From a virus (lineage: Duplodnaviria > Heunggongvirae > Uroviricota > Caudoviricetes): a DNA stretch of 64,000 bases. The position numbers and the translations under genes are program-made. Shown here piece after piece: positions 2,989 to 51,257 of this stretch. A model generated the notes under the pieces. It made no database searches and was not told where the DNA came from. It worked only from the letters and a program-made list of their open reading frames with translations. Positions within the stretch are counted from its first letter, which is position 1; each line of letters starts with the position of its first letter. The DNA is taken from the IMG/VR virus record IMGVR_UViG_2690316068_000002, one strand, 5' to 3'.

Positions 2989-3543
2989 TTACACAATTTC
3001 AGAGGGTAATTTAAAAAATCCGTACTTATTACGTGCCTTAAAGAAGCATTGCATCATTAAGTTTGTGTCATATAAGGCACTATGTGCTTTAGTATGATCG
3101 TACATAAAGCCAAGAGAGAAGGCCAACTCTTCAAGGCGGGGACGTTTACCGTCTTCTGTGGCCCACAGGGAAAATATAGTGTCAATCAATGGGATGTCTG
3201 GAAGCGAAAAACCGTAACTTTTCAGCTCATGCCTAATAAACGGAATATCGAACGCTTCGCCGTTGTGGGCTATCCAAATATCGGAAGAAGAGAGATACGA
3301 AGCGACAGATGAAGCGTGATCGGCTAGTAACGGCTCGGCGGCTAAATCTTCAAGACTGATGCCGTGTACCGCTTGCGCTTTCGGATCGATACTGCGACGC
3401 GGGTTGAACCGCATTACAAAACTATCAACCATTGTCTGTGTCTCCAGTTCATAGCGGGTAATTGCGATTTCAATAATTTTATGACCAGCAAGGAAATCCA
3501 GTCCCGTAGACTCGATATCGATGCCTGCAACAATCGTTGTCAT
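2989..3543 (-). CDS. DnaQ-like 3'-5' exonuclease (DEDDh family, Pol III epsilon-like)
   Basis: Exo I motif VAGIDIESTGL near N-terminus; H-x4-D motif (HSALYD) near C-terminus; 184 aa. Confidence 0.75.
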   Translation of the reverse strand: MTTIVAGIDIESTGLDFLAGHKIIEIAITRYELETQTMVDSFVMRFNPRRSIDPKAQAVHGISLEDLAAEPLLADHASSVASYLSSSDIWIAHNGEAFDIPFIRHELKSYGFSLPDIPLIDTIFSLWATEDGKRPRLEELAFSLGFMYDHTKAHSALYDTNLMMQCFFKARNKYGFFKLPSEIV

Positions 3544-3552
3544 CAGAACTCC

Positions 3553-3972
3553 TTACAACTTCTTAGCGCCCTTAAGTAGTGCGCTACGTACAAATTGAGC
3601 CGCTTTTTTCAAAGTTTCTTCACTGGTTTCACAGACAATCGGATCTTTCCACTTACCTGACGCAGTGTTGAGAATATTGATTTGGTTGCTATCCAGACAA
3701 ACAGAGATATAAAGCACCGTGCCACCAGCCAGCATCAAATGCATAGGAAACAGAGGCTTTTTACTGTCTTCACTGAACTGAGACATGGCGATGTTAATGG
3801 CTTCACCTACTTGTGCGCCAACAAGCCCTTGCGCAATTTCGAATACGGTACGAATAGCCAGACGAGCCTCTCGATCGCTCATAAGCGACCGGGAATGTTC
3901 GTCCGCTACACGAATCAAAGCCTCTGTTGTTTTCCGATCCAGTTCATCTTCAAGTAACATTTCACTAAACAT
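3553..3972 (-). CDS. hypothetical protein
   Basis: 139 aa ORF in operon context. Confidence 0.5.
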   Translation of the reverse strand: MFSEMLLEDELDRKTTEALIRVADEHSRSLMSDREARLAIRTVFEIAQGLVGAQVGEAINIAMSQFSEDSKKPLFPMHLMLAGGTVLYISVCLDSNQINILNTASGKWKDPIVCETSEETLKKAAQFVRSALLKGAKKL

Positions 3973-7786: not shown

Positions 7787-8929
7787 TTACAGGTCTGCAA
7801 ACTGGCTTAGAGAAGCCTTGTCCACGGTAGAATCGATCTGACCTACCAGATATGTGCTTTGCTCTGCCTCTTGTGGTGCAATTTGCAGTGTGTCGGTTAA
7901 CAACCACTTGTTCATCCAGACCAGCGGATCAGTGGTAACTTCTGGAAATAAAGCCTTCAGGCCAAGACGATTCATAGCCAGATTGGTTCGGTATTTTACA
8001 TAGGTCTTCAGAATATCCGCGTTTAAACCAATCATCGAACCGTCTTTGAAGAGATAGTCTGCCCAGTTCATTTCTTGTTCGGCGACTGATTTCATGGTGT
8101 CGTAAATGACGTTTTCTTCATCAGCAGCAATCTCTTTCCACAATAAACCTTCGCGACCGGTACGCATGAAGCGGATCATGCGTTCAGTTCCTTCGCAATG
8201 CAGAGCTTCATCACGGGCAATAAAGCGCATAATTTTGGTGTTACCCTCAAGCAACTTCCGTTCGCCAAAGGCAAACGTACATGCAAAACTTACATAGAAA
8301 CGGATCGCCTCAAGCGCATTAATGGACACTAACGTGCGGAAAAGCTGACGGTGCAAAGGATATGGCTCCCAGCCATATTCATTTACGTACAGACGCTCAA
8401 ATTCCTTCTCGCCTAACGACTGGCGATCGCAGGTCATCCCATAAAGCCTGTCATATTCAGCAGAGATACTGATGGCTCGGTTGATGATTTCTTCATCCGT
8501 AACAATACCGTCAAAAACAATACTCGGATCGTCCACCATGCCACGAATAATGTGGGTGTAGCTGCGGCTATGGATAGTCTCAGAGAAAGACCACGTTTCA
8601 ACCCACGTTTCCAGTTCAGGAATAGAGATAAGCGGCAGCAGAGTTGCGTTTGGGCTACGTCCCTGAACTGAATCGAGCAACGTTTGATAACGGAGATTAC
8701 TCAGGAAAATGTGGCGTTCGTGGTCCCGCAGCTTCGTATTGAAGTCGATGCGATCGCTCGAAATATCAACTTCTTCCGGCCGCCAGAAGAAAGACAATTG
8801 ACGTTCAATCAACTTTTCAAAATCACGGTATTTTTGTTGATCGTAACGAGCCACGTTGACAGATTGTCCGAGGAACATAGGCTCTTTGGTTGCATCATTA
8901 GCACCCAAACGGAACGTTGAATATGACAT
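7787..8929 (-). CDS. nrdB: ribonucleotide reductase class Ia small subunit
   Basis: N-terminus nearly collinear with E. coli NrdB ([41 protein letters not shown]); 380 aa. Confidence 0.92.
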
Positions 8930-9007
8930 GTGTTTTTCCTTTTTTGATGTGTTTAAACAAGTTGTTATCTTATGTGTTTAAACAAGGCTTACAAATCAAA
9001 GATAAGG

Positions 9008-15962: not shown

Positions 15963-16075
15963 GTGTTTTTCCTTTGTGGTTATTTTGATACAGATATTAA
16001 GTGTGTTTGAGAGGCGAACAATCCAGATAACACGGCCATTAAGAATGTTCACAGACACATGATTATGGCAAATTC

Positions 16076-16095
16076 ATAGGTAAGTGAATACCTAT
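16076..16095. promoter_or_regulatory. promoter-proximal palindrome ATAGGTAAGTGAATACCTAT
   Basis: Member of recurrent palindrome family; ~115 nt upstream of sbcD start. Confidence 0.4.
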
Positions 16096-16188
16096 TTTTA
16101 TGGGCAGCAAAGATTTCTAGATGTTACAAGCCACTCTATAATCGCAGTCACTTAATGATGACAACCAAACGAAAAAGGAGAACTGACG

Positions 16189-16692
16189 GTGAAACGCGTA
16201 ATTATAGGGACGATGGCCATTGCTCTGATCGGATGCGTACCAAAACCACCTCAAGATGAAAAGTCAGCTGGCGGGTACGTTGATATTTACTCCACTTCAA
16301 GCGTAGCAATTGCCCAAGACAGAGCCGACAAATTGTGTGGAAGCCATGCCTATTATGTCTCTAACGACAATGATTTAACCAAAGTCATGGGTAGATACGC
16401 GCCTTCATTCCCAAAAATCAGGTTCAACTGTGATCTTGAAATGGCCGCTTATCTGGGCAGCAAAGAGGCAAAGGAGATCAAAATGAAACGCATAGAGGAA
16501 GCCTACAAGGAGATGTACAAGGCCCAATATGAGCTGAAAGAAGTGCGCCGTAAGAACGCTGATCCGAAGAAGCTGGAGTCTTACACAGAACGCGATCCGG
16601 ACGGTACTATTCGCAGCTACAGCTTCTTGAATGGCAAGTCGTGCGAATCAATCGTGTACCCAGACGGCACGGGCAAAACGACTTGTGATTAA
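16189..16692 (+). CDS. putative lipoprotein
   Basis: Signal peptide with lipobox LIGC; plus strand amid minus-strand genes; followed by terminator. Confidence 0.6.
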   Translation: MKRVIIGTMAIALIGCVPKPPQDEKSAGGYVDIYSTSSVAIAQDRADKLCGSHAYYVSNDNDLTKVMGRYAPSFPKIRFNCDLEMAAYLGSKEAKEIKMKRIEEAYKEMYKAQYELKEVRRKNADPKKLESYTERDPDGTIRSYSFLNGKSCESIVYPDGTGKTTCD

Positions 16693-16701
16693 TTCTTCAG
16701 G

Positions 16702-16733
16702 AGCACCTCGTATGGGGTGCTTTTTATTTTGGG
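16702..16733 (+). terminator. rho-independent terminator
   Basis: AGCACC-tcgtatgg-GGTGCT followed by TTTTTATTTT. Confidence 0.6.
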
Positions 16734-16735
16734 TC

Positions 16736-17164
16736 GCGAAACAGCATGTCGGCCATTTGCGAGGATTTGACGTAGCACTTTGCCATCATCGGCTGACTAG
16801 GGTTTGATGCGATCATGTCGGACACCAGCATTGACCCATAGCCTTTTCCGCGAAGCTCTTTGACAATACTGACGGCACGGAGTTCAAGTCAAGGTGCGCC
16901 AGTCGGATCGAGTGCGGCACAGAACCAGATTAGTCCTACTTTTTGTCATCAGAACGATGCAGCAGGATGTAGATAAAATGCCCGGAGTATTGGCCCCGCT
17001 CGTTCGTCTTGATTGCCAGTCTGGTCTGCTGCTCAAAGGTTTTACCCCCCCTTTGATGTGAGGATCTCTTCGTAGAAGTGACCTTTGCGTGCGCCGTCCT
17101 CGAACTCAGCCATGATAAAAGGCATGTCTGTCACAGTTGCTGCCCTTGAATAAAATTCACTCAT
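16736..17164 (-). pseudogene. disrupted GNAT-family N-acetyltransferase
   Basis: Minus-strand fragments in three frames: MSEFYSRAATVTDMPFIMAEFEDGARKGHFYEEILTSKGG*, FEQQTRLAIKTNERGQYSGHFIYILLHRSDDKK*, ELRAVSIVKELRGKGYGSMLVSDMIASNPSQ...; the RGKGYGSML block is GNAT motif A; no intact ORF. Confidence 0.45.
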
Positions 17165-17239
17165 GTATTAATCCTAAAAGCCCTCAGTGTCTTTCTAATG
17201 CACCATATTTTATGCCTCGGTTAAACCCTGAGATTACGT

Positions 17240-17884
17240 TTAAAACGTCTCAGTGGGCTTTTTACGCGCTGCGTTTATGCTTATGACGCCAGCTTTTGGA
17301 CGTGGGTCAACAAGGTTAAGCTCTTCTTCACTGTGGTATTCGAGGTCGAACTCACGTTTTACATGTCTGATGTAGATTGCGGTGAGCAGGCTATCTTTGG
17401 TCAGAAAGTGTCCGTAGGATTTGCGGATCACTTCTTCTACCTTCTCGATTTTCTCACCACCCATACAGAGATGATTAAACCGGCTGTGTTTCCGCAACAT
17501 TTCGTCTACTGGGCCTGAGTAAACCTTGTCTACTTTCCCAAAACGGATGATTTTCCCTGTGTCTGCGGATACGAGGCAAATCAGCTTGTCTGGTGATAAA
17601 CGATCTCGCCACGTCACACCTGAACGGAGTGTGTTGAAGTAGGGAGCATCCAATCCGATGATCGGTTTACGAAATGCGAGTAATGGAACGTACCTGATGC
17701 AACTGTTTAAATGAAAATTCACACCAGCCTTATCAAGTTTAATTCTGGTTTCGTAGATCGGGCACTTCGCCGCTATACCGCAGATGTCACAAAGCAACTT
17801 CTGCTTATTCAGGTTGGAATTCGATTCGATAGTGTAGGAGCCGTCTTCAAGACGACGAACCCAGCGCGTGCGTTTTAGATCCAT
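17240..17884 (-). CDS. hypothetical protein
   Basis: 214 aa ORF divergent from the replicon. Confidence 0.5.
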   Translation of the reverse strand: MDLKRTRWVRRLEDGSYTIESNSNLNKQKLLCDICGIAAKCPIYETRIKLDKAGVNFHLNSCIRYVPLLAFRKPIIGLDAPYFNTLRSGVTWRDRLSPDKLICLVSADTGKIIRFGKVDKVYSGPVDEMLRKHSRFNHLCMGGEKIEKVEEVIRKSYGHFLTKDSLLTAIYIRHVKREFDLEYHSEEELNLVDPRPKAGVISINAARKKPTETF

Positions 17885-17971
17885 ATGTCATTTTTCTGTG
17901 ATTGTTAGCCGAGGCAACGATAACCCACCAGGTGCGCCGAAGGTAGTAAATGCCTGTTTTAATTATTCACA

Positions 17972-18044
17972 TTATCCACAGGATAGATCCTAATAAAGAG
18001 ATCCATAGATAGATCCTTGTATAGATCAAATAAGATCCCCGATC
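17972..18044. promoter_or_regulatory. origin-associated DnaA box plus GATC cluster
   Basis: TTATCCACA (17972-17980) matches DnaA box consensus; six GATC sites at about 17986, 18000, 18012, 18024, 18034, 18041. Confidence 0.6.
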
Positions 18045-18084
18045 GCTGTAAGCCGCGCCACGACTGGTCTGAAGCCATGTTCAT

Positions 18085-18186
18085 GTATGCTGTCAGCGGT
18101 AATTGATAGTCTGTCAGCGGTTCACCGTATGCTGCCAACTGTTTTTGGTATTCTGTCAGCGGCAAATCAAGTATGCTGTCAGCGGT
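18085..18186. repeat. iteron array upstream of repA (5 copies)
   Basis: GTATGCTGTCAGCGGT-like 16-mers at about 18085, 18107, 18127 (degenerate), 18148, 18171. Confidence 0.8.
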
Positions 18187-18206
18187 TGAATGACAAAGGT
18201 GTCCAC

Positions 18207-19301
18207 ATGTCCACAAAAAATAAAAAAGGTAAAAATAACAAAGAAGTAGAAGATAACATCGACAACTTTGAAGAAGGTTCCCTTGAATTGTACACAGGGG
18301 AACTTGTCCCTAATAGCAACAATACAGTCCAACCAATTGCGTTGATGCGACTGGGGTTGTTCGTCCCCACGCTTAAGGGAACAAAATACAGTAAACGTAA
18401 CAAGCCAAATGAGATCGATGCTTCAAAGGAGCTTGTCCAGCTCGAAGTAGCCCGTTCTGAAGGCTATTCCGATATCAAGATAACCGGCCCTCGCCTGGAC
18501 ATGGATCATGATTTCAAAACGTGGGTGGGCGTTGTGCGTTCGCTGGCAGAATACGGCGAACCTAATGGTCGTGTCGAGTTAAGCATCACGAAATTTGCGA
18601 AGTTTTGTGGCTATCCATCGTCACAGATCCGCAAAACACTCCGCGACCGGCTTACAAACAGTCTTTTGAAGATCATGCGTACAACTCTGTCTTTCCAGAG
18701 AACGTATGAAGAAAAGAACGTCGACGGCTCTAACAAGATCTCGCTTCTGATGGTGCACCTCATCAATAGCGTGGACTACAACGAGCAGAAAGATACGGTG
18801 GTGTTCTATGCAGAACCGAAGCTGGCCGAACTATATCGCTTTGACCATAAGGTTCTTTTGCAGTTAAAGGTTATCAATAAGCTACCACGCAAAGAAACAG
18901 CACAGGCTCTGTACACCTTCATCGAAAGTCTTCCAACCAAGCCTGCGCCGGTATCGCTTGCTCGATTGCGTGCGCGACTCAATTTGAGTAGCAGGAATGT
19001 CAGCTCGCAGAATCAGACTATACGTAACGGCTTAAAAGCTCTCCAAGATTTGGGCTATCTCGAATACAGCGAGATTAAGCGTGGGCGGTCGATCTATATC
19101 CAGATTCACAGCCGCAATCCAAAACTCAAAGTCGCACCGCCAAAACCTGAAGACATCGAACCCAAAAAACCAGATGAGAAAGCTGGGGAAATTGATGCCA
19201 AACAGAACATTATCAACAAGATAACCGAACTTTCGCAGAATTTGACGCCTGAAAATATCAAGATGATTGAGATCCTTTCCAATAGTCTCAAACTGCTTTG
19301 A
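18207..19301 (+). CDS. repA: plasmid-type replication initiator (RepA-like)
   Basis: ORF 18087..19301 trimmed to ATG at 18207 (AAAGG RBS; longer ORF would run through the iterons); assignment rests on flanking iterons, DnaA box and GATC cluster, not on recognised protein motifs. Confidence 0.6.
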   Translation: MSTKNKKGKNNKEVEDNIDNFEEGSLELYTGELVPNSNNTVQPIALMRLGLFVPTLKGTKYSKRNKPNEIDASKELVQLEVARSEGYSDIKITGPRLDMDHDFKTWVGVVRSLAEYGEPNGRVELSITKFAKFCGYPSSQIRKTLRDRLTNSLLKIMRTTLSFQRTYEEKNVDGSNKISLLMVHLINSVDYNEQKDTVVFYAEPKLAELYRFDHKVLLQLKVINKLPRKETAQALYTFIESLPTKPAPVSLARLRARLNLSSRNVSSQNQTIRNGLKALQDLGYLEYSEIKRGRSIYIQIHSRNPKLKVAPPKPEDIEPKKPDEKAGEIDAKQNIINKITELSQNLTPENIKMIEILSNSLKLL

Positions 19302-19418
19302 TATGCTGTCAGCGGTGAAATGTATGCTATCAGCGGCTATTTTTCTGAAAAGTATGCTGTGAACGGTTAAAGATATGCTACCAGCGGTATAGTGAGATAA
19401 ACGTATGCTGTGAGCGGT
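19301..19418. repeat. iteron array downstream of repA, cluster 1 (5 copies)
   Basis: 16-mers (G/A)TATGCT(G/A)(T/C)(C/G)A(G/A)CGG(T/C) at about 19301, 19322, 19342, 19373, 19403. Confidence 0.8.
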
Positions 19419-19577
19419 AAATCATCTATCACCACTCAATGCTCTGGCATACCTCCCCAGTGGTTACTAACCTCGAAGAGTGCATTCCATATAGGTTTGC
19501 GCTCACTAACATTCTATTGCCGTTGCGCTGATTGCTTGTAGTGAAAGGCATTTATTGCCTGCTGCTCCCTGATAGAA

Positions 19578-19832
19578 CGTATGCTGTCAGCGGTGTTTTA
19601 TTGAGGAATTTTTGTTTGGATATGCTATCAGCGGTAATTAATGGTATATGTCAGACCTTCGTATGCTGCCAGCGGTAATTTTGTTCTGGTTATACCCATA
19701 CCGGTACACATTATTCATGCAATGTCTTAAGTATGCTGTCAGCGGTAAAAAATCGAGTAAAGTATGCTGTGAGCGGTGAGATAAACTCTCGATATGCTAT
19801 CAGCGGTAATTGATTGTGTATGCTGTCAGCGG
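19578..19832. repeat. iteron array downstream of repA, cluster 2 (7 copies)
   Basis: Same 16-mer family at about 19578, 19619, 19660, 19730, 19761, 19791, 19817. Confidence 0.8.
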
Positions 19833-19845
19833 TGACGACTATGAA

Positions 19846-19867
19846 ATATGACTGCGGCACGTGCCGC
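19846..19867. repeat. perfect 22-bp palindrome GACTGCGGCACGTGCCGCAGTC
   Basis: Seen directly; sits at end of iteron field between convergent units; hairpin or protein-binding site. Confidence 0.6.
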
Positions 19868-19880
19868 AGTCAGTTTGCAT

Positions 19881-20093
19881 TTAGTGTATTTTCTTTAACA
19901 GACCCCAAAGTGTTCCGGCTTTTGTAGTCAGTTTTCCTGTTTCTGGATCGTACATACGCCATTCACGCCGCTGGTGGACGATATACCCATCTTCACGTTC
20001 CAGACGCTCAAGAATGCCAGGCTGCTTGAAACCCTTAGCACGCCAGTAGCCGCTTGTTTTCTCGATTTCCAGACCTGCCAGTGTTAATGCCAT
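19881..20093 (-). CDS. hypothetical protein
   Basis: 70 aa ORF. Confidence 0.4.
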   Translation of the reverse strand: MALTLAGLEIEKTSGYWRAKGFKQPGILERLEREDGYIVHQRREWRMYDPETGKLTTKAGTLWGLLKKIH

Positions 20094-20974: not shown

Positions 20975-21400
20975 TCAATCTTCTTGTTTAGGGAAAAACT
21001 GTTCAATAACTCTGTCAACGGCTGTGTCTATATGGAGTAGATGCCACACAACCATATCTTTGCTTCCCATGCCTTGTGTGAATATCACGTCATACTTACG
21101 CCATGCGCAGTGGAACCAATATGCTGAGTCATCAATTGGTAAATCCTCTCCCGCCTCTTTGAAGTATTTCAGCAGCATTGCCTGCTCTGCCGTTGGCGTT
21201 GGACCTATTTCCTGAGCGTACATACGGATGAATCGCTGCCAGTCTGTCTCGTCGGGGGTTGGATCTGGTGGGGTCATTTCTGCGATAGCGTTTCGTAGCT
21301 GATGCGCCCAATCAGGTTCAGGAAAGCCTTTTGCTACTTCATCATCAATAACATCCAGAGCCACGTTTGCGGCATCGTAGAGTTTCTTAATAGCTGTCAT
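20975..21400 (-). CDS. hypothetical protein
   Basis: 141 aa ORF. Confidence 0.5.
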   Translation of the reverse strand: MTAIKKLYDAANVALDVIDDEVAKGFPEPDWAHQLRNAIAEMTPPDPTPDETDWQRFIRMYAQEIGPTPTAEQAMLLKYFKEAGEDLPIDDSAYWFHCAWRKYDVIFTQGMGSKDMVVWHLLHIDTAVDRVIEQFFPKQED

Positions 21401-21450
21401 GTTTTCTTATCCTTTTAAACAAATTGTTTTCTTAATAAGATAATTGCGAT

Positions 21451-33524: not shown

Positions 33525-35633
33525 TCACTTCAAAATGATACGAGATAGTTCAGTAACTACAGATGAACCAAGACTATCAACGCTCGTTACCAGGGCATGA
33601 TTTGAGTAAAATCTCTCCGGTGCGTCAGTCATGATGCCAATTGCCATCAAATCAATGTCAGTCTGCGTTTCAATTTGCTTCGCAACCGAACGCAAATGAG
33701 CGTCAAAACCTCTCCCAACAGCCCACGGCTCGCCATCGCTCAGAACAAGCATGATCTTCCTGTCCTCCATGCGACCGGAAAATAACGATGCAAGGCTGGC
33801 TATGCTTTCACCATCCACGTTATTAAGAAGTGGGAATGTGTAGCCTACGCACCCCATACGTGAGCGAACTTCGCGAGAATTTACCTTTTCATTCCAATTT
33901 TTGATGATAGGTAGCATTAAAGATTCAAAGCGAGAGAACTCATACTTGACAGCCTTAAGTTCTCCTGCCGCCATATGACTACCAAATGTAGTGAAGCCGG
34001 TGATAATGTTGGGAACATTTATTCGATCAAGGGCATCGGCGATGGTATATGCACTTGCAAGAGCCAATTGTATCGTTATACCCCTCATTGAACCTGATAA
34101 ATCAATCACTTGTTGAACACAGGCGTTAACGGCTTTAGATTCTTCTTTTTTACGAAACACGCGATCATCATTCATTGCTAATCTGTAGATACTAGAACCA
34201 TGAATGCGCCCCCGACGCTGGCCCGGTATAAACTGAACTCTGTTTCTGCTTGCTATTGCTCGCTCCAGGTCTTTTGCCAGCGTCGACGAAACACCTGACG
34301 AAAGATGCTTTTCAATATATTTGTCGAAGAGCTGGTTGCCTTCAGGAACGATGCGATAGCGGCTGATTGGACATCCTCCTAAATCAATATCGGAGAATGT
34401 TTTAATAAGCCGTTTGATATGGGCTTCTGCCTGATCAATCGAGCCGATGAAGTCGTATGAGCGATTGTATGGCCTGTATTCGCTTTTCGAGCTTTCTGTT
34501 AACTCGCTTTTAATCGTTTCGGATAGAGCATCTTCTGTCATGCCTCCGACTTCATCTTCTATGCTATCCAGCTCCTCTAAAGCCTCTTCCAGACTCATTT
34601 TTGACGGAGTTGGAATATCTGAAGAGCCGTCTTCTGTCGTTTTTCTTTTTTCGTGGTCAGCGGTTAATGATTCTGACGCCGCGTTATCAGAAGCATCAGA
34701 ATCTGATACCTCTTTATCATTTTCTGTATCATCGAATATTGTTTCTGATGATTCAGAATTATCTGAATCATCACTGTCGTTATTATCATGTTTGTGCTTA
34801 CTGTGTGATTCTGATTTGATAGATTTGTGATTATCTAACGATGAGGGTGTCTCATGATCTTCGTTGTCTTCATTGTTTTCTCCAGAGGCATCCGTCTGGT
34901 CAGCGTCTGAAGGATCGGAAGTTTTTCCCGGAGCTGACTCCTTACCTTTGCTTTCACTTTCAGTGTCTTTGAGGATCTTAGCTATGGTCGCAGCCACCTT
35001 TACACAATCCTCGGTGCAAGACATGTTACGCACGGCCACATCGATACCATGTTCTTTTAATAATGAAATTGGTTTCTCAATGACAGGCCAGTATTCATCC
35101 ATGAAATCTACGAACGGTGCTTGGCCATCCCAGGCTCTTACAACCGGACAGAGAAAGAAGTTTAGAAAAAGCGCGCGCTGATCTTTGCCACAATAAGCAA
35201 TAGCCTCTGAAGCCTTTGGTTTAAAGACTTTTTCGATTATAAGGCGCTGAGTTGCCATCAGATTACGTCTTGTTCCGTTAAAGACCTGACCCATTTTTCG
35301 CTCGATGAACACGTCTTCTAAGGCATTCCATAGCGACCAGGAAGGAACGCGTCCTTTTTCTCTCATTTTGTTGGACACACGAATATCGGTAAACAAAATG
35401 TGAGCAACCTCATGATCGAGAAATCCGCGCACAGCATTCATCAATGCCGGTGTTGCGTTATCCGGGATTGATGGGATGTTTACGAGAATTGGCTCTCCAT
35501 CATCGTTATAGCGTACATAAGCGTCGTCCCCTCGTTCTGCAACAGGGATGTTTTTACCTGAAAGGAGAGCGACTACTCGTTTTACACTGTCACGGAAGTC
35601 CTGAACCTCTTTGATGGAACGTTTTTTAGACAT
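33525..35633 (-). CDS. von Willebrand factor A domain protein (CobT-like)
   Basis: C-terminal vWA with VIDLSGSMRG motif; central Ser/Asp/Glu-rich low-complexity acidic region. Confidence 0.65.
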   Translation of the reverse strand: MSKKRSIKEVQDFRDSVKRVVALLSGKNIPVAERGDDAYVRYNDDGEPILVNIPSIPDNATPALMNAVRGFLDHEVAHILFTDIRVSNKMREKGRVPSWSLWNALEDVFIERKMGQVFNGTRRNLMATQRLIIEKVFKPKASEAIAYCGKDQRALFLNFFLCPVVRAWDGQAPFVDFMDEYWPVIEKPISLLKEHGIDVAVRNMSCTEDCVKVAATIAKILKDTESESKGKESAPGKTSDPSDADQTDASGENNEDNEDHETPSSLDNHKSIKSESHSKHKHDNNDSDDSDNSESSETIFDDTENDKEVSDSDASDNAASESLTADHEKRKTTEDGSSDIPTPSKMSLEEALEELDSIEDEVGGMTEDALSETIKSELTESSKSEYRPYNRSYDFIGSIDQAEAHIKRLIKTFSDIDLGGCPISRYRIVPEGNQLFDKYIEKHLSSGVSSTLAKDLERAIASRNRVQFIPGQRRGRIHGSSIYRLAMNDDRVFRKKEESKAVNACVQQVIDLSGSMRGITIQLALASAYTIADALDRINVPNIITGFTTFGSHMAAGELKAVKYEFSRFESLMLPIIKNWNEKVNSREVRSRMGCVGYTFPLLNNVDGESIASLASLFSGRMEDRKIMLVLSDGEPWAVGRGFDAHLRSVAKQIETQTDIDLMAIGIMTDAPERFYSNHALVTSVDSLGSSVVTELSRIILK

Positions 35634-35731
35634 GGCTAATCCTTTGTTATGAAAACAAATTATTTACTAGTGTGTTTAATGTAGCACTGCGCGAACAGGG
35701 AACTAAGCCATTCGCGCAGGGAGAAGAGGGG

Positions 35732-47335: not shown

Positions 47336-47378
47336 GTGCTTTCCTTTGTTTTTTAAACAAATTGTTTTCTAGTATTAG

Positions 47379-48290: not shown

Positions 48291-48312
48291 ATAATTGTTG
48301 ATACTACCAATA

Positions 48313-49116
48313 CTAGTATCCAAGAAAATCAGTATCTTTCTCTAATCTTATTTTTTCCAGCTTATACGATCCTGGAGGGCACTTCATTTTGTAGATTTCG
48401 ATACCTGAATCAAATAGTTGATGAACATAATTTTGAAGTTGACTGCTAGCCTTACAACCTATTGTTATTTCCTTAATTAAGGATTTATCAAATAATTTCA
48501 CGCCACAATTCTCGGTTACGATTCTAACCTCCTCTTCATATTCCCAGACATCGCTTTTATTTAGGCAAAGAGCCGCTGCAATCTCTTTATCTGAGTCGGT
48601 AAAAAAATTTACAACCGGAACATCAGAGGAATATTTGACCTCACCGCGAACAAAAAAACCATCATCAAACGCATTTATAAAACCATCATCAAATCCGATG
48701 CAAAAACCAGAGTGAGAATGCGCATAATGCGACCACATAAGATAATTATCTGGTCTTTTTGTCAAACAAATAACTCCCCGACACTGCAGAAAAGTTGTTC
48801 TAATCATATAGTTATCAAAACTGCGACTATGTTCTGTTTGACTCAATAACCAGCGTTCAAATTCATCATTGTGATGATTAGGCCAAAGCTCAAAAAATCT
48901 TTTCTTAATGGCGTCTATATCAGCATCATAATCAAAATTAACTTTAAACTCGGCAGGATCGTTGAAATCATTCGGACGAGTTGCTCGAATTTTCCCATCT
49001 TCTAAGTAATACTTTAAATACTTTATTGTGTCTTCCGGGACGCTACTTCCAACATATTTGTAAAGCATAAATATACCTTTTAAGAGAAGGCGTCTAATCA
49101 CGCCTTCTCTTATCAA
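48313..49116 (-). CDS. hypothetical protein, DUF2971-like pattern, low GC
   Basis: 267 aa; YLKYYL...NDFNDPAEF...W-HYA-H-G-C-GF resembles DUF2971 as I recall it; AT-rich codon usage. Confidence 0.45.
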   Translation of the reverse strand: MIREGVIRRLLLKGIFMLYKYVGSSVPEDTIKYLKYYLEDGKIRATRPNDFNDPAEFKVNFDYDADIDAIKKRFFELWPNHHNDEFERWLLSQTEHSRSFDNYMIRTTFLQCRGVICLTKRPDNYLMWSHYAHSHSGFCIGFDDGFINAFDDGFFVRGEVKYSSDVPVVNFFTDSDKEIAAALCLNKSDVWEYEEEVRIVTENCGVKLFDKSLIKEITIGCKASSQLQNYVHQLFDSGIEIYKMKCPPGSYKLEKIRLEKDTDFLGY

Positions 49117-49472
49117 CCTTTCTTCATCAACTCGCGTTTGATTTCATCGGTACGCATCGTTACGTCGGCAGCTGTGATCGCCTCGTTAAGTTTCACGATG
49201 TCCTCGATTTCCTGCGGTGACTTCTCTGCCAGATGGAAAATGGCTGCTCGAATCACGTCAGAACGAGTGAACTTCTCGAAGCGAGGGATGAACTTCATCA
49301 TCTCCAGCAGTTCGAAGTATTCGTCCTCCAGTGACATTGTGCGGCTTTTAATTTTCTCTTTGCCACGAGTCGGGCGTCCCTGTGGTCTGACTGGTTGGCG
49401 CAAAGGAGTTGTGTTCTTAGCCGGTGCATCAGGCTCTTTGCGCTTTGCTAGGTCACCCATTTTCATGGACAT
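49113..49472 (-). CDS. putative partition protein (ParA partner, ParG/ParB-like)
   Basis: 119 aa basic N-terminus; translationally coupled downstream of ParA-like gene. Confidence 0.45.
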   Translation of the reverse strand: MSMKMGDLAKRKEPDAPAKNTTPLRQPVRPQGRPTRGKEKIKSRTMSLEDEYFELLEMMKFIPRFEKFTRSDVIRAAIFHLAEKSPQEIEDIVKLNEAITAADVTMRTDEIKRELMKKG

Positions 49473-50140
49473 TATTCTTCTTCCTCCAGACTCAACAGAT
49501 AATCTACAAATTCTTCAAACTCGGCTTCCGCCTTTTTGTCGCGCTCGCTACCGGTCATTTCAAAGATAGAACGACCAGACTCTTCCGCATCATCATAGAC
49601 GTTGCGGTTATATAGATTGACTGGCGCAGACTCGATTCCAAACGTCTCAACAATCTCTTTAGCCGCCAGAATGCGAGACACTTGTGATGGCAAAGCCGGG
49701 CACTGGTTCATGACCGCGCGGACCTTCACTTTATCGTTTACATTGCGAACATTGTCGATAATAGGATCGATGTCACGTAAAGATTTCAAATCACGACGCT
49801 TAGGACGCAGCGGGATAATGATAACGTCAGCCATCAGCATCGCTTGTCGCTGAATTTCGGAGTCGAAGCCACCAGCATCTACCACTACAAACTCAGCTCT
49901 ACCCTGAAGCGATTTTAGGTGCTTAATGATGTCATCCTGAACGTATGCAAAAGGAATCAGCTCAAGGTCTTCGTTCTGTCGACGGTCTTCACACCAGCTC
50001 GTTGTCGTGCGCTGAATATCTATATCGGTAATATAAACCTTCTTCTTCTTTTTGACTTTCAGGCAAACGGCAATTTGCTGGGCAACGGTGGATTTGCCAG
50101 GCCCGCCCTTTGTGCCGCCAACCACAAAGATCTTGGTCAT
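49472..50140 (-). CDS. parA: ParA/ParF-type partition ATPase
   Basis: Deviant Walker A TKGGPGKST (KGGxGK[ST]T with signature lysine); VVVDAGGFD; 222 aa. Confidence 0.7.
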   Translation of the reverse strand: MTKIFVVGGTKGGPGKSTVAQQIAVCLKVKKKKKVYITDIDIQRTTTSWCEDRRQNEDLELIPFAYVQDDIIKHLKSLQGRAEFVVVDAGGFDSEIQRQAMLMADVIIIPLRPKRRDLKSLRDIDPIIDNVRNVNDKVKVRAVMNQCPALPSQVSRILAAKEIVETFGIESAPVNLYNRNVYDDAEESGRSIFEMTGSERDKKAEAEFEEFVDYLLSLEEEE

Positions 50141-50321
50141 TGGAGAGTTCCCTTTGCGTATATAATTATCGTCTGAAACAACTTGTTTTCTTATATGTGA
50201 TATAGCCTAAATGCCTACGGCTGCGGTGTAAAGGTTAAATGGTAGGTTGTGATTAACAATTGGCAATCATAGCTTGTATTTGTCTGTTGAAAAAAGTAAC
50301 AATGACCTCTATATTACAAGT

Positions 50322-50340
50322 ACGGTGATATGCCGTACAC
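50322..50340. promoter_or_regulatory. palindrome GTACGG-tgatatg-CCGTAC upstream of toxin-antitoxin operon
   Basis: Inverted repeat in the promoter region, candidate antitoxin operator. Confidence 0.35.
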
Positions 50341-50458
50341 AATTTGATAATGCACACGTAATGGGCTATAGCCTTTTAAAGTAATTTTTGAGTCGAAAAC
50401 TCAGTTTGAACAGAGGAGATTGATGGCCTTCCTACATCACGGCCATCAGGAGGAATAC

Positions 50459-50728
50459 ATGTCAGCACTAAAAAAGCAGCGCATCGATTTGAGATTAACC
50501 GATGACGATAAAAGCATCATCGAGGAAGCTGCCGCAATGTCTAACCAGAGCATTACTCAGTTTATGGTTAGCAGTGCATCTGAACGTGCCGTGAAAGTTA
50601 TAGAGCAACACCGTAGACTAGTTCTGAATGAAGAATCCTGGAATCTGGTTATGGACGCTATAAGCAATCCTCCGGCACCGAACGACAAGCTGAAACGAGC
50701 TGCTGATCGTCTGAAAAGCATGGAGTAG
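50459..50728 (+). CDS. DUF1778-family antitoxin (TacA/KacA-like, RHH)
   Basis: ORF 50420..50728 trimmed to ATG for MSALKKQRIDLRLTDDDKSIIEEAA (AGGAGG RBS), a typical DUF1778 antitoxin N-terminus. Confidence 0.75.
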   Translation: MSALKKQRIDLRLTDDDKSIIEEAAAMSNQSITQFMVSSASERAVKVIEQHRRLVLNEESWNLVMDAISNPPAPNDKLKRAADRLKSME

Positions 50729-50735
50729 TTTACTC

Positions 50736-51257
50736 GTGAGCAATACAACGATAGAGATTTTCTCTGGAGAGAAAGATTATGATCTAAACGGTTTTGATTG
50801 CGGCGAAGAGTCACTAAACGCCTTTTTAGCCAACCACTTAAAAAGGCAGCATGAGGGAAAAATTCTTCGTGCTTATGTGCTTTGCACTCAAGAAGAAAGG
50901 CCAAAAGTGTTAGGATATTACACTTTGTCAGGTAGTTGTTTTGAAAAGGAGTCCTTACCTTCAAGAAGCAAACAAAAGAAGGTTCCTTATCGGAATGTTC
51001 CAAGTGTTACTTTGGGTAGGCTGGCTTTGGACAAGTCCCTTCAAGGTCAAGGATTTGGCTCAATGCTTGTAACACATGCAATGCGCGTTGTGTACAATGC
51101 ATCTCTTGCTGTAGGCATTCATGGACTTTTCGTTGAGGCGTTAAATGACAAAGCCAAGGCGTTTTATAAAAGTTTAGGCTTTATCCAGCTGGTTGGTAAC
51201 AACGAGCGTTCTTTGTTCTATCCTACAAAATCTATCGAAAAATTGTTCGAAGAATAA
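50736..51257 (+). CDS. GNAT-family acetyltransferase toxin (TacT/KacT/AtaT-like)
   Basis: 173 aa, 8 nt downstream of antitoxin; GNAT motif A LQGQGFGSMLV; C-terminal AFYKSLGF; non-ATG start. Confidence 0.75.
   Translation: MSNTTIEIFSGEKDYDLNGFDCGEESLNAFLANHLKRQHEGKILRAYVLCTQEERPKVLGYYTLSGSCFEKESLPSRSKQKKVPYRNVPSVTLGRLALDKSLQGQGFGSMLVTHAMRVVYNASLAVGIHGLFVEALNDKAKAFYKSLGFIQLVGNNERSLFYPTKSIEKLFEE

Follow-up and report, generated by a model that had tools for sequence, protein, structure and literature searches.

We analysed a 64,000-nucleotide stretch of DNA from a tailed virus (Caudoviricetes; IMG/VR record IMGVR_UViG_2690316068_000002), hereafter the window, around a gene pair at positions 49113–50140 that has the layout of a plasmid partition (par) operon. 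Both genes lie on the minus strand. The first, parA (49472–50140), encodes a 222-amino-acid (aa) ATPase of the ParA superfamily, and the second (49113–49472) encodes a 119-aa protein, referred to below as the partner and presumed to be the centromere-binding protein. The parA stop codon and the partner start codon share one base within the sequence TAATG (GAATAATGTCC), the partner ATG using the A of the parA TAA, and this one-base overlap fits translational coupling. In every locus that we examined, from Escherichia, Salmonella, Klebsiella, Xenorhabdus and metagenomes to plasmids of Pseudomonas and Acinetobacter, the partner gene lies directly downstream of that for a ParA of 221–229 aa. A first-pass annotation of this DNA had described an ATPase with a deviant Walker A motif, coupled to a small basic protein in the arrangement of a type I partition system. 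These claims hold: the ATPase has the motif and has ParF as its best solved relative, the small protein has an isoelectric point (pI) of 9.6 and overlaps parA, and the pairing of a small type Ib ATPase with a small partner recurs in all lineages examined.

Over the region 48300–50450, identity is 99.2% with Escherichia phage Cyrano (OV696614), which is the phage-plasmid pLF82 of E. coli LF82. Salmonella phage SSU5 and the SSU5-like phage-plasmids of Klebsiella match this region at 80–87% identity. The window as a whole is about 98–99% identical to Cyrano and is collinear, in reversed orientation, with Cyrano 15450–79303, barring a few replaced segments. A PADLOC search with ParA and the partner gave nothing meaningful for membership of a defence system.

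The ATPase

The deviant Walker A motif of ParA, KGGPGKS, occupies residues 11–17 and includes the signature Lys11 together with Lys16, in agreement with the xKGGxxK[ST] pattern and signature lysine that define the ParA/MinD superfamily. The P-loop begins at residue 8 and Pfam shows no additional domain. The length of the protein falls within the ~200–230 aa of type Ib ParAs, and it has no counterpart of the N-terminal regulatory or helix-turn-helix (HTH) domain of type Ia ParAs. Since the protein is short and has no extra N-terminal domain, we assign it on sequence grounds to type Ib, the ParF-like kind. Its best solved relative is ParF of plasmid TP228 (4dzz/5u1g; E 1e-10), with an alignment that covers residues 9–199. 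In the alignment with 4dzz the Walker A motif, the DxD (A') motif (TDIDIQ aligned with VDTDPQ), the Walker B motif (VVVD88, with FVVVDAGG aligned with FAIVDGAG) and D117, which corresponds to ParF Asp-111, are all kept.

Among family profiles, PHROG 164 ('ParA-like partition protein') matches ParA with an E-value of 4e-51. The NCBIfam equivalog NF041546 (ParA_partition) scores 115.7 bits (E 1.9e-33) and does not reach its curated cut-off of 180, and the window protein appears to represent a related but distinct subfamily. The records of Cyrano, SSU5, PhiR41_1 and pJN2-26 already label it ParA. By tblastn against PLSDB we found it in 2904 plasmids, and in about 760 of these the identity is at least 60%. 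The names given by PGAP to the PLSDB/RefSeq copies are often 'AAA family ATPase' or 'MipZ'.

The second of these names deserves attention, as MipZ, the division-site ATPase of Caulobacter, is the top match of ParA in Pfam, ahead of AAA_31, CbiA and ParA, all four being above cut-off, and solved MipZ structures are found at E ~7e-10. One could thus propose that the pair does not serve partition, the ATPase being a MipZ-like division regulator or the small protein a RelE/ParE toxin, and the MipZ name carried by some RefSeq plasmids would speak for it. We consider this proposal highly improbable. The Pfam alignment covers residues 4–132 of ParA only, against profile positions 2–150 of 262, and the solved MipZ structures likewise align with the N-terminal P-loop half alone (residues 2–132), whereas ParF aligns along the whole protein. 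The best PHROG and NCBIfam matches are partition ParAs. MipZ is also longer (~290 aa against 222 aa), and ParA sits with its small partner in an operon of a mobile element, here a phage-plasmid, rather than acting from a chromosomal division site. An identity with MipZ therefore fails both for want of a full-length match and on context, and the 'division plane positioning ATPase MipZ' entries in RefSeq plasmids are probably mis-annotations that arose through naming by best match.

The partner protein

The charge of the partner is unevenly spread, with all of the surplus positive charge in residues 1–46 (pI 11.4) and a pI of 5.0 for the rest. Family alignments divide the protein into four modules: an N-terminal peptide, M-G-D-L-A-K-(R/K); a variable linker, acidic or proline-rich; a disordered basic arm (RPQGRPTRGKEKIK; family pattern RPQGRPTRGKxxIK); and a core, SRTMSLEDEyxeLlxxl...ftRSDViRAAIxxL, which reads SRTMSLEDE...FTRSDVIRAAI in the window and is followed by two more helices at the C-terminus. 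Residues L8, I41, R44, S47, E49, R70, D72, R75 and L81 are invariant across the family and K10 is nearly so. In an AlphaFold2 (AF2) model of the monomer residues 1–47 have no regular secondary structure and helices span residues 48–59, 70–82, 86–97 and 101–118. The mean pLDDT of this model is 70, with values of 80–90 in the core, below 50 for residues 1–24 and rising from 51 to 65 over residues 21–50.

In its sequence pattern the core reads as a short alternating strand, a helix and a second helix of the form h-(S/T)-R-S-D/E-h-h-R-A-A-h. A strand-helix-helix pattern of this kind is the look of ribbon-helix-helix (RHH) proteins such as CopG, Arc and ParD. Several independent profile matches to RHH families fall on this one segment, all of them sub-threshold and none significant: NCBIfam aCcr1, an RHH regulator family, on residues 54–79 of the partner (E 2e-4), two Pfam matches on the Acinetobacter homologue, to RHH_3 at E 0.012 and to RHH_1 at E 1.6, and RHH_1 on family member P0035 (E 0.11). 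Using hhalign, the family alignment gave a weak, in-register match to CopG (E 0.018), a probability of 0.1% for ParG and no similarity to omega. The window partner matches no Pfam family, and none of 12 family members matches an RHH or ParG family of Pfam even at E ≤ 10. Searches of PDB sequences with phmmer and hmmsearch gave nothing significant, and three structure searches with the partner model returned noise only, as might be expected when an obligate intertwined dimer is modelled as a monomer. Taking the matches and the pattern together, we favour an RHH fold for the core with moderate confidence.

The best match of the partner profile among PDB sequences, itself not significant, was to the bHLH-Zip of SREBP-1a (E 0.075), over residues ~32–91 (window 49200–49379). 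It brings the basic arm, helix 1, loop and helix 2 into line with the partner, and we treat it as a chance match that is probably convergent. The long inter-helix loop of the partner and the CAA-N-TTG core of a palindrome described below would be noteworthy beside it should the RHH assignment fail.

In public databases the partner is named 'hypothetical protein' or, in Cyrano, 'RelE/ParE putative toxin', and it belongs to PHROG 5111, for which no function is known there. The toxin label is probably a mis-annotation: the 12 family members have no ParE or RelE match even at E ≤ 10, and a disordered basic tail with four helices, as in the AF2 model, is unlike a compact alpha/beta toxin. By analogy with known type Ib systems, the partner is likely to be the centromere-binding protein. 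Its invariant GDLAK(R/K) peptide is a candidate for the ParA-docking and stimulating role of the tail of ParG, which carries an arginine-finger-like motif and docks on ParF (PMC7308502).

RNA-seq of LF82 places the transcripts of the partner gene (CYRAN_29) 9-fold, and those of the neighbouring DUF2971 gene (CYRAN_30) 6-fold, over the prophage background (PMC9928086), so that the operon is on in the plasmid state. The level is modest and is consistent with autoregulation. The same study lists the partner gene among its morons (PMC9928086, Table 1).

Promoter and conserved block upstream of parA

The DNA upstream of parA is made up of three parts of different history. Next to the gene, 50141–50171 is a weakly conserved leader that carries the ribosome-binding site. 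The adjoining segment, 50172–50247, is identical at 74 of 76 positions to Klebsiella pJN2-26 and likewise to SSU5. From 50248 outward the DNA belongs to a TacA/TacT toxin-antitoxin (TA) module that is absent from SSU5, PhiR41_1 and pJN2-26, where other genes are found instead, and homology to these three elements stops at 50247. In the comparisons with SSU5 and pJN2-26, parA itself is 84% and 77% identical, or 61% and 50% at third codon positions. For the 31 bp that separate the ATG from the palindrome described below, the values are 84% and 58%. Conservation of 97% upstream against 77% in parA points to strong purifying selection on non-coding DNA. The conserved block is not an RNA element, as it has no Rfam match and folds no more stably than shuffled sequence.

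Within this segment we predict a sigma-70 promoter for the par operon (50204–50232, minus strand), with TTTACA (50227–50232) as −35 element, a 17-bp spacer and TAGGCT (50204–50209) as −10 element. It was read from the sequence. A consensus scan passed it over, as TAGGCT fits the consensus at only three of six positions. Comparison with divergent related loci supports the call. The combination TTTACA-17-TAGGCT is found again in L010 and L017, and L019 has TTTACA-17-TAGTAT and L011 TTGACC-17-TACCAT. Across L010, L011, L013, L017 and L019 the −35 element (TTTACA, TTGACC or TTGTCG), the spacing of 17–18 bp and the −10 element are kept, and the spacer sequence varies.

The promoter is overlapped by a hyper-conserved block, 50192–50247, that is specific to par and that we regard, on its conservation and uniqueness, as a candidate centromere and/or autoregulatory operator. 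It consists of short GC boxes that alternate with AT-rich spacers and recur with an 8-bp period: ACC at 50241–50243, 50233–50235 and 50225–50227, GCC at 50219–50221, and TAGGC at 50213–50217 and 50205–50209. Autocorrelation of GC and AT positions peaks at a lag of 8 (p = 0.002 uncorrected, ~0.03 when corrected for 16 lags). The motifs GCCGTAGGC and TAGGC-N3-TAGGC each occur once in the window and once in the Cyrano genome, and ACC-N5-ACC-N5-ACC occurs twice in both, the second time at a site unrelated to par. Among the divergent loci, L010 keeps the boxes at −35, −10 and GCC in position despite differing bases between them, and L017 keeps GCCGTAGGCT, displaced by 8 bp.

This layout invites comparison with parH of TP228, a stretch of ~100 bp in which tetramer boxes, separated by AT-rich spacers, recur every 8 bp (PMC3130281). 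The ACTC boxes and AT spacers of parH share their period with the weak one of the block, but the block has no ACTC boxes and no evident repeat array. A search with find_repeats and TRF for repeats of any kind (direct, inverted or tandem) near par found no parS-like array, either in the window or in the divergent loci, where it took in the 316-bp spacer that follows the partner gene in L011 and L013. The first-pass annotation suggested that 50141–50400 may hold the centromere. A centromere may still lie upstream of parA, but the palindrome named there turns out to be genome-wide and not par-specific. We infer that the block is a better centromere and operator candidate than the palindrome.

Distant relatives of the operon

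Profile searching of 1.84 billion representative proteins yielded only 18 clusters of the partner family, with members from SSU5-like elements and from Acinetobacter and Pseudomonas, all 'hypothetical' and without Pfam annotation. A wider search of this kind, over 5.8 billion sequences, raised the number to 75 clusters, again all unannotated, from SSU5-like elements of Enterobacterales and from Acinetobacter. The partner thus belongs to a narrow orphan family. Members with available genomic context usually show the SSU5-like gene order of tail fibre, lysis genes, parA, partner and, on contigs long enough to include it, helicase.

Two plasmids lie further afield. Pseudomonas avellanae p1NCPPB3491 and A. 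baumannii p2DB053 encode ParAs that are 43–45% identical to that of the window, each followed by a small open reading frame (ORF) whose product is homologous to the partner family (hhalign probability 96–97.5%, the Acinetobacter protein at 97.5%). In the conjugative plasmid p1NCPPB3491 both flanks of the operon carry arrays of a 9-bp repeat, TGCATACCG, in direct and inverted orientation (positions 2330–2445 and 3521–3615 of locus L015), whereas the SSU5-like loci have no such arrays. Neither p1NCPPB3491 nor p2DB053 has the GAAAACA-N3-TGTTT palindrome described below. The arrays likely form a two-sided centromere of the textbook type Ib kind and would, by analogy, set a precedent within the family for centromeres that flank the operon. 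The p1NCPPB3491 operon should also be a good system for DNA-binding tests of the partner family.

A palindrome shared by many promoters

The AAACAA-N-TTGTTT palindrome reported upstream of parA by the first-pass annotation is indeed there, as AAACAACTTGTTT at 50176–50188. In its full extent (GAAAACAAGTTGTTTC, 50175–50190, minus strand) it is an exact copy that starts 13 nt downstream of the −10 element and is conserved in most SSU5-like lineages. It is not confined to par. Searching the window for AGAAAACAANTTGTTT with up to two mismatches gave six matches at five loci against 0.34 expected, a result reached by none of 100 shuffled sequences, and three of these are exact (at 50176, 47355 and 21417).

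All other copies also precede genes, and all lie on the minus strand. The second exact copy (AGAAAACAATTTGTTT, 47355–47370) is 20 nt upstream of the start codon (47335) of a DnaB-like helicase gene, and the third (21417–21432) is 16 nt upstream of a 141-aa ORF that starts at 21400, right after a terminator-like hairpin. A copy with one mismatch (AGATAACAACTTGTTT, 8955–8970) lies 25 nt upstream of a 380-aa, nrdB-like gene (7787–8929), the counterpart of the Cyrano gene for the ribonucleotide reductase beta subunit, and a copy with two mismatches (AGTAAATAATTTGTTT, 35653–35668) lies 19 nt upstream of a 702-aa, cobT-like gene that starts at 35633 and is the counterpart of CYRAN_47.

The complete Cyrano genome has about 20 good copies, eight of which fall within 93–98.5 kb among small early-type genes. 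Nearly all have the orientation of the gene that follows and lie 11–13 nt downstream of a GATAAT-like −10 element. Genes for replication, nucleotide metabolism and par, as well as small early-type genes, carry the palindrome 16–36 nt before their start codons. A second set of palindromes in Cyrano has another conserved context, TTCACAAAT.AGA.AAGGCA. The palindromes at parA and at the helicase gene are conserved in SSU5, Klebsiella and metagenomic lineages with the common core GAAAACA-N3-TGTTT, that at the helicase promoter being kept in SSU5, PhiR41_1, Kpn1825, L010, L011, L013 and L019.

As it recurs at about 20 promoters across the genome, the palindrome looks like a class of operator, bound by a genome-wide regulator between about +5 and +20 at many promoters, rather than a par-specific centromere. 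P1, with its many scattered C1 operators, offers a comparison. The family as a whole looks like the regulon of a master regulator of SSU5-type phage-plasmids and would give a handle on their regulatory circuit. We found no description of it in the literature.

The regulator could in principle be the partner itself. In that case the partner would bind GAAAACA-N3-TGTTT both as a centromere-binding protein with dispersed sites and as a global repressor of about 20 phage promoters, and partition would be tied to the expression of phage genes, a reading that we hold unlikely. Besides the −35 and −10 elements the palindrome is the sole element of the parA promoter present in nearly all lineages, including L010, L011, L013 and L019, in which the block has diverged, and over the same lineages the SRTxS strand and the RSDV helix of the partner are invariant. 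No repeat array lies beside par. The centromere sites of phage-plasmid N15 are dispersed, and omega of pSM19035, a partition protein of the RHH type that binds tandem heptads and represses several promoters as well, is a similar precedent. The N15 centromere in particular comprises four separate single palindromes, IR1–4 (PMC7205306), type Ib partners usually autoregulate at their own promoter (PMC7308502), and the partner is transcribed in the lysogen (PMC9928086). Both precedents differ from the present case, however, as N15 has a type Ia SopA and a large HTH SopB that spreads, and omega binds heptads, not isolated palindromes.

Several observations weigh on the other side. Isolated palindromes of 13–16 bp at a fixed distance from the −10 element resemble the operators of a dedicated phage repressor, and the genome encodes several other DNA-binding regulators. 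Known RHH partition proteins use clustered short repeats, like those of the Pseudomonas relative. L017 keeps the partner and TTTACA-17-TAGGCT but has lost the palindrome at parA, which is missing from L021 too. All genomes that bear it are SSU5-like, so that its co-occurrence with the partner is inseparable from shared ancestry. The loss of the block from L011 and L013, with the putative DNA-reading residues of the partner kept, nevertheless keeps the idea alive. Its strongest form, in which SSU5-type elements have no compact centromere and segregate through about 20 scattered sites at early and replication promoters, the partner being a global repressor, seems to us improbable. If true, it would link partition to the phage developmental programme and provide a type Ib, RHH-based counterpart of N15 SopB.

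A probable type Ib partition cassette

We are fairly confident that the locus is an active type Ib ParA partition cassette, through which both daughter cells would inherit an SSU5/Cyrano-type phage-plasmid in its low-copy plasmid-prophage state. The observations from which this reading is built are direct ones: the gene pair with its motifs and coupling, the pattern of conservation, a block that is unique in the genome and a palindrome in multiple copies. The closest known system is ParF-ParG-parH of TP228, which likewise combines a small ParA that has no N-terminal domain with a small partner encoded directly downstream. ParG has a flexible tail at its N-terminus and a core at its C-terminus that binds DNA, an architecture that we predict for the partner as well. 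The cis site would be expected upstream, over the promoter, where it would also serve as operator. The partner differs from ParG in having no detectable sequence similarity to it, in its length (119 against 76 aa), in two extra C-terminal helices and in a longer inter-helix loop in the core. The host replicon differs as well, being a 108-kb siphovirus-type phage-plasmid, unlike plasmid TP228. The ParA-ParB pair of plasmid pCXC100 from Leifsonia, also type Ib, is a further point of comparison, and the crystal structure of its ParB reportedly shows an RHH fold. Its sequence is unrelated, its host Gram-positive, and the evidence for the fold of the partner is weaker than that for its ParB.

By homology with ParF and other small ParAs, the window ParA would dimerise on ATP and coat the nucleoid. 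The 119-aa partner would dimerise through its RHH-like core and bind the cis site, with additional DNA contacts from the basic arm, and its GDLAK(R/K) peptide would dock on ParA and stimulate ATP hydrolysis, in the way that the tail of ParG acts on ParF. The cis site may be the block 50192–50247 over the promoter, in which case one complex would act as both centromere and autorepressor, as at parH/OF of TP228. The palindrome at 50175–50190, present at its place in the sequence, would in addition put par expression under a phage-wide regulator.

A number of points weigh against this interpretation. In the literature on SSU5, pHCM2 and Cyrano we found no experiment in which the cassette stabilises a replicon. 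In the LF82 lysogen parA is not among the genes expressed more than 5-fold over background (PMC9928086). The block has no clear repeat array, its boxes are only 3–5 bp long, and its periodicity is marginal after correction for the 16 lags. In the more divergent L011 and L013 another sequence stands in place of the block, although the strand with which the partner would read DNA is the same, which argues against the block as the only site of the partner. Finally, Cyrano carries genes for ParB-domain proteins and for a MinD-like ATPase beyond the limits of the window.

These last genes lie well apart from par. The Cyrano record has a gene for a 366-aa MinD-like ATPase at 89738–90838, expressed 9-fold over background in the lysogen, and at 105144–106492, beside the packaging genes, two genes for ParB/Srx-domain proteins (CYRAN_119/120), annotated as 'ParB protein' and 'ParB-like nuclease domain' protein. 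It could be that ParA works with CYRAN_119/120 and that the small adjacent protein is a transcriptional regulator only. The annotation in Cyrano and the use of an SSU5 'parB' as a marker gene in a surveillance study both lend themselves to this proposal, which we nonetheless judge very unlikely. ParAs that pair with large HTH ParBs typically have an N-terminal domain, and that of the window is short and has none. CYRAN_119/120 are encoded tens of kb from parA, whereas the small protein is coupled to ParA and co-inherited with it in every lineage, including non-phage plasmids that have this pair only. This strict coupling to the small gene makes CYRAN_119/120 unlikely partners of ParA, and the N-terminal peptide of the small protein is conserved in the manner of ParA-stimulating tails.

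Returning to the type Ib cassette, it is a genuine but ordinary system of the expected kind in the expected place, and its ParA was already annotated. Its description has uses all the same. Clinical E. coli, Salmonella Typhi, Shigella and Klebsiella commonly carry phage-plasmids of the SSU5/pHCM2 type, and we found no experimental work on the partition or the operators of SSU5, pHCM2 or Cyrano. For annotation, the unnamed or mis-named gene after parA can be read as that of the likely centromere-binding partner, and the obvious palindrome as a probable genome-wide operator and not a par site. The candidate cis site, now narrowed to 56 bp, may be of use for plasmid curing or incompatibility work.

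Flanking genes and the replicon

On the minus strand the par locus stands in the order tail fibre, holin/endolysin/spanins, par, DUF2971 gene, a 249-aa gene, DnaB-like helicase and primase, and the toxin-antitoxin pair lies divergently upstream of parA. That pair (50420–51257, plus strand), an insertion, encodes TacA (Pfam TacA1, E 9e-26) and a GNAT toxin of the TacT/KacT-like kind, with a predicted promoter TTGAAA-17-TATATT at 50287–50315. The further palindromes that the first-pass annotation saw in 50141–50400 do exist, at 50250–50269 (TGATTAACAATTGGCAATCA), 50320–50338 (GTACGG-N7-CCGTAC) and 50364–50373 (GGCTATAGCC), but they are part of this insertion and not of par. The latter two are plausible TA operators. 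In the LF82 lysogen the TacA/TacT module is strongly expressed, at 35–60 fold (PMC9928086).

At the other end of the operon, a perfect 13-bp stem-loop with no U-tract (49081–49112, minus strand) starts one base after the partner stop codon. Its predicted RNA fold has an energy of −25.3 kcal/mol (z = −6.0; none of 200 shuffles as stable), and scoring for an intrinsic terminator was negative. Homology to PhiR41_1 and SSU5 sets in at the partner stop codon, and the stem-loop coincides with the limit of that homology. The hairpin may be the 3' end of the operon, a stabiliser of its mRNA or the cassette junction with the DUF2971 cargo gene.

The DUF2971 gene (48313–49116, minus strand) directly downstream of par gave a PADLOC match to PDC-S31, a candidate defence family (E 3e-41). 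ApeA-HEPN and Abi_2 genes flank par in L017, a related locus. On both sides, par thus seems to border a hot spot of defence and addiction cargo.

Cyrano is present at about 5.5 copies per cell (PMC9928086). The window diverges most from it at 16001–19881, which covers the Cyrano repA region and matches at 89% or not at all. In the replication region, at 18081–18186, lies a 42-bp tandem repeat of 2.5 copies that includes TGTCAGCGG and possibly represents iterons.

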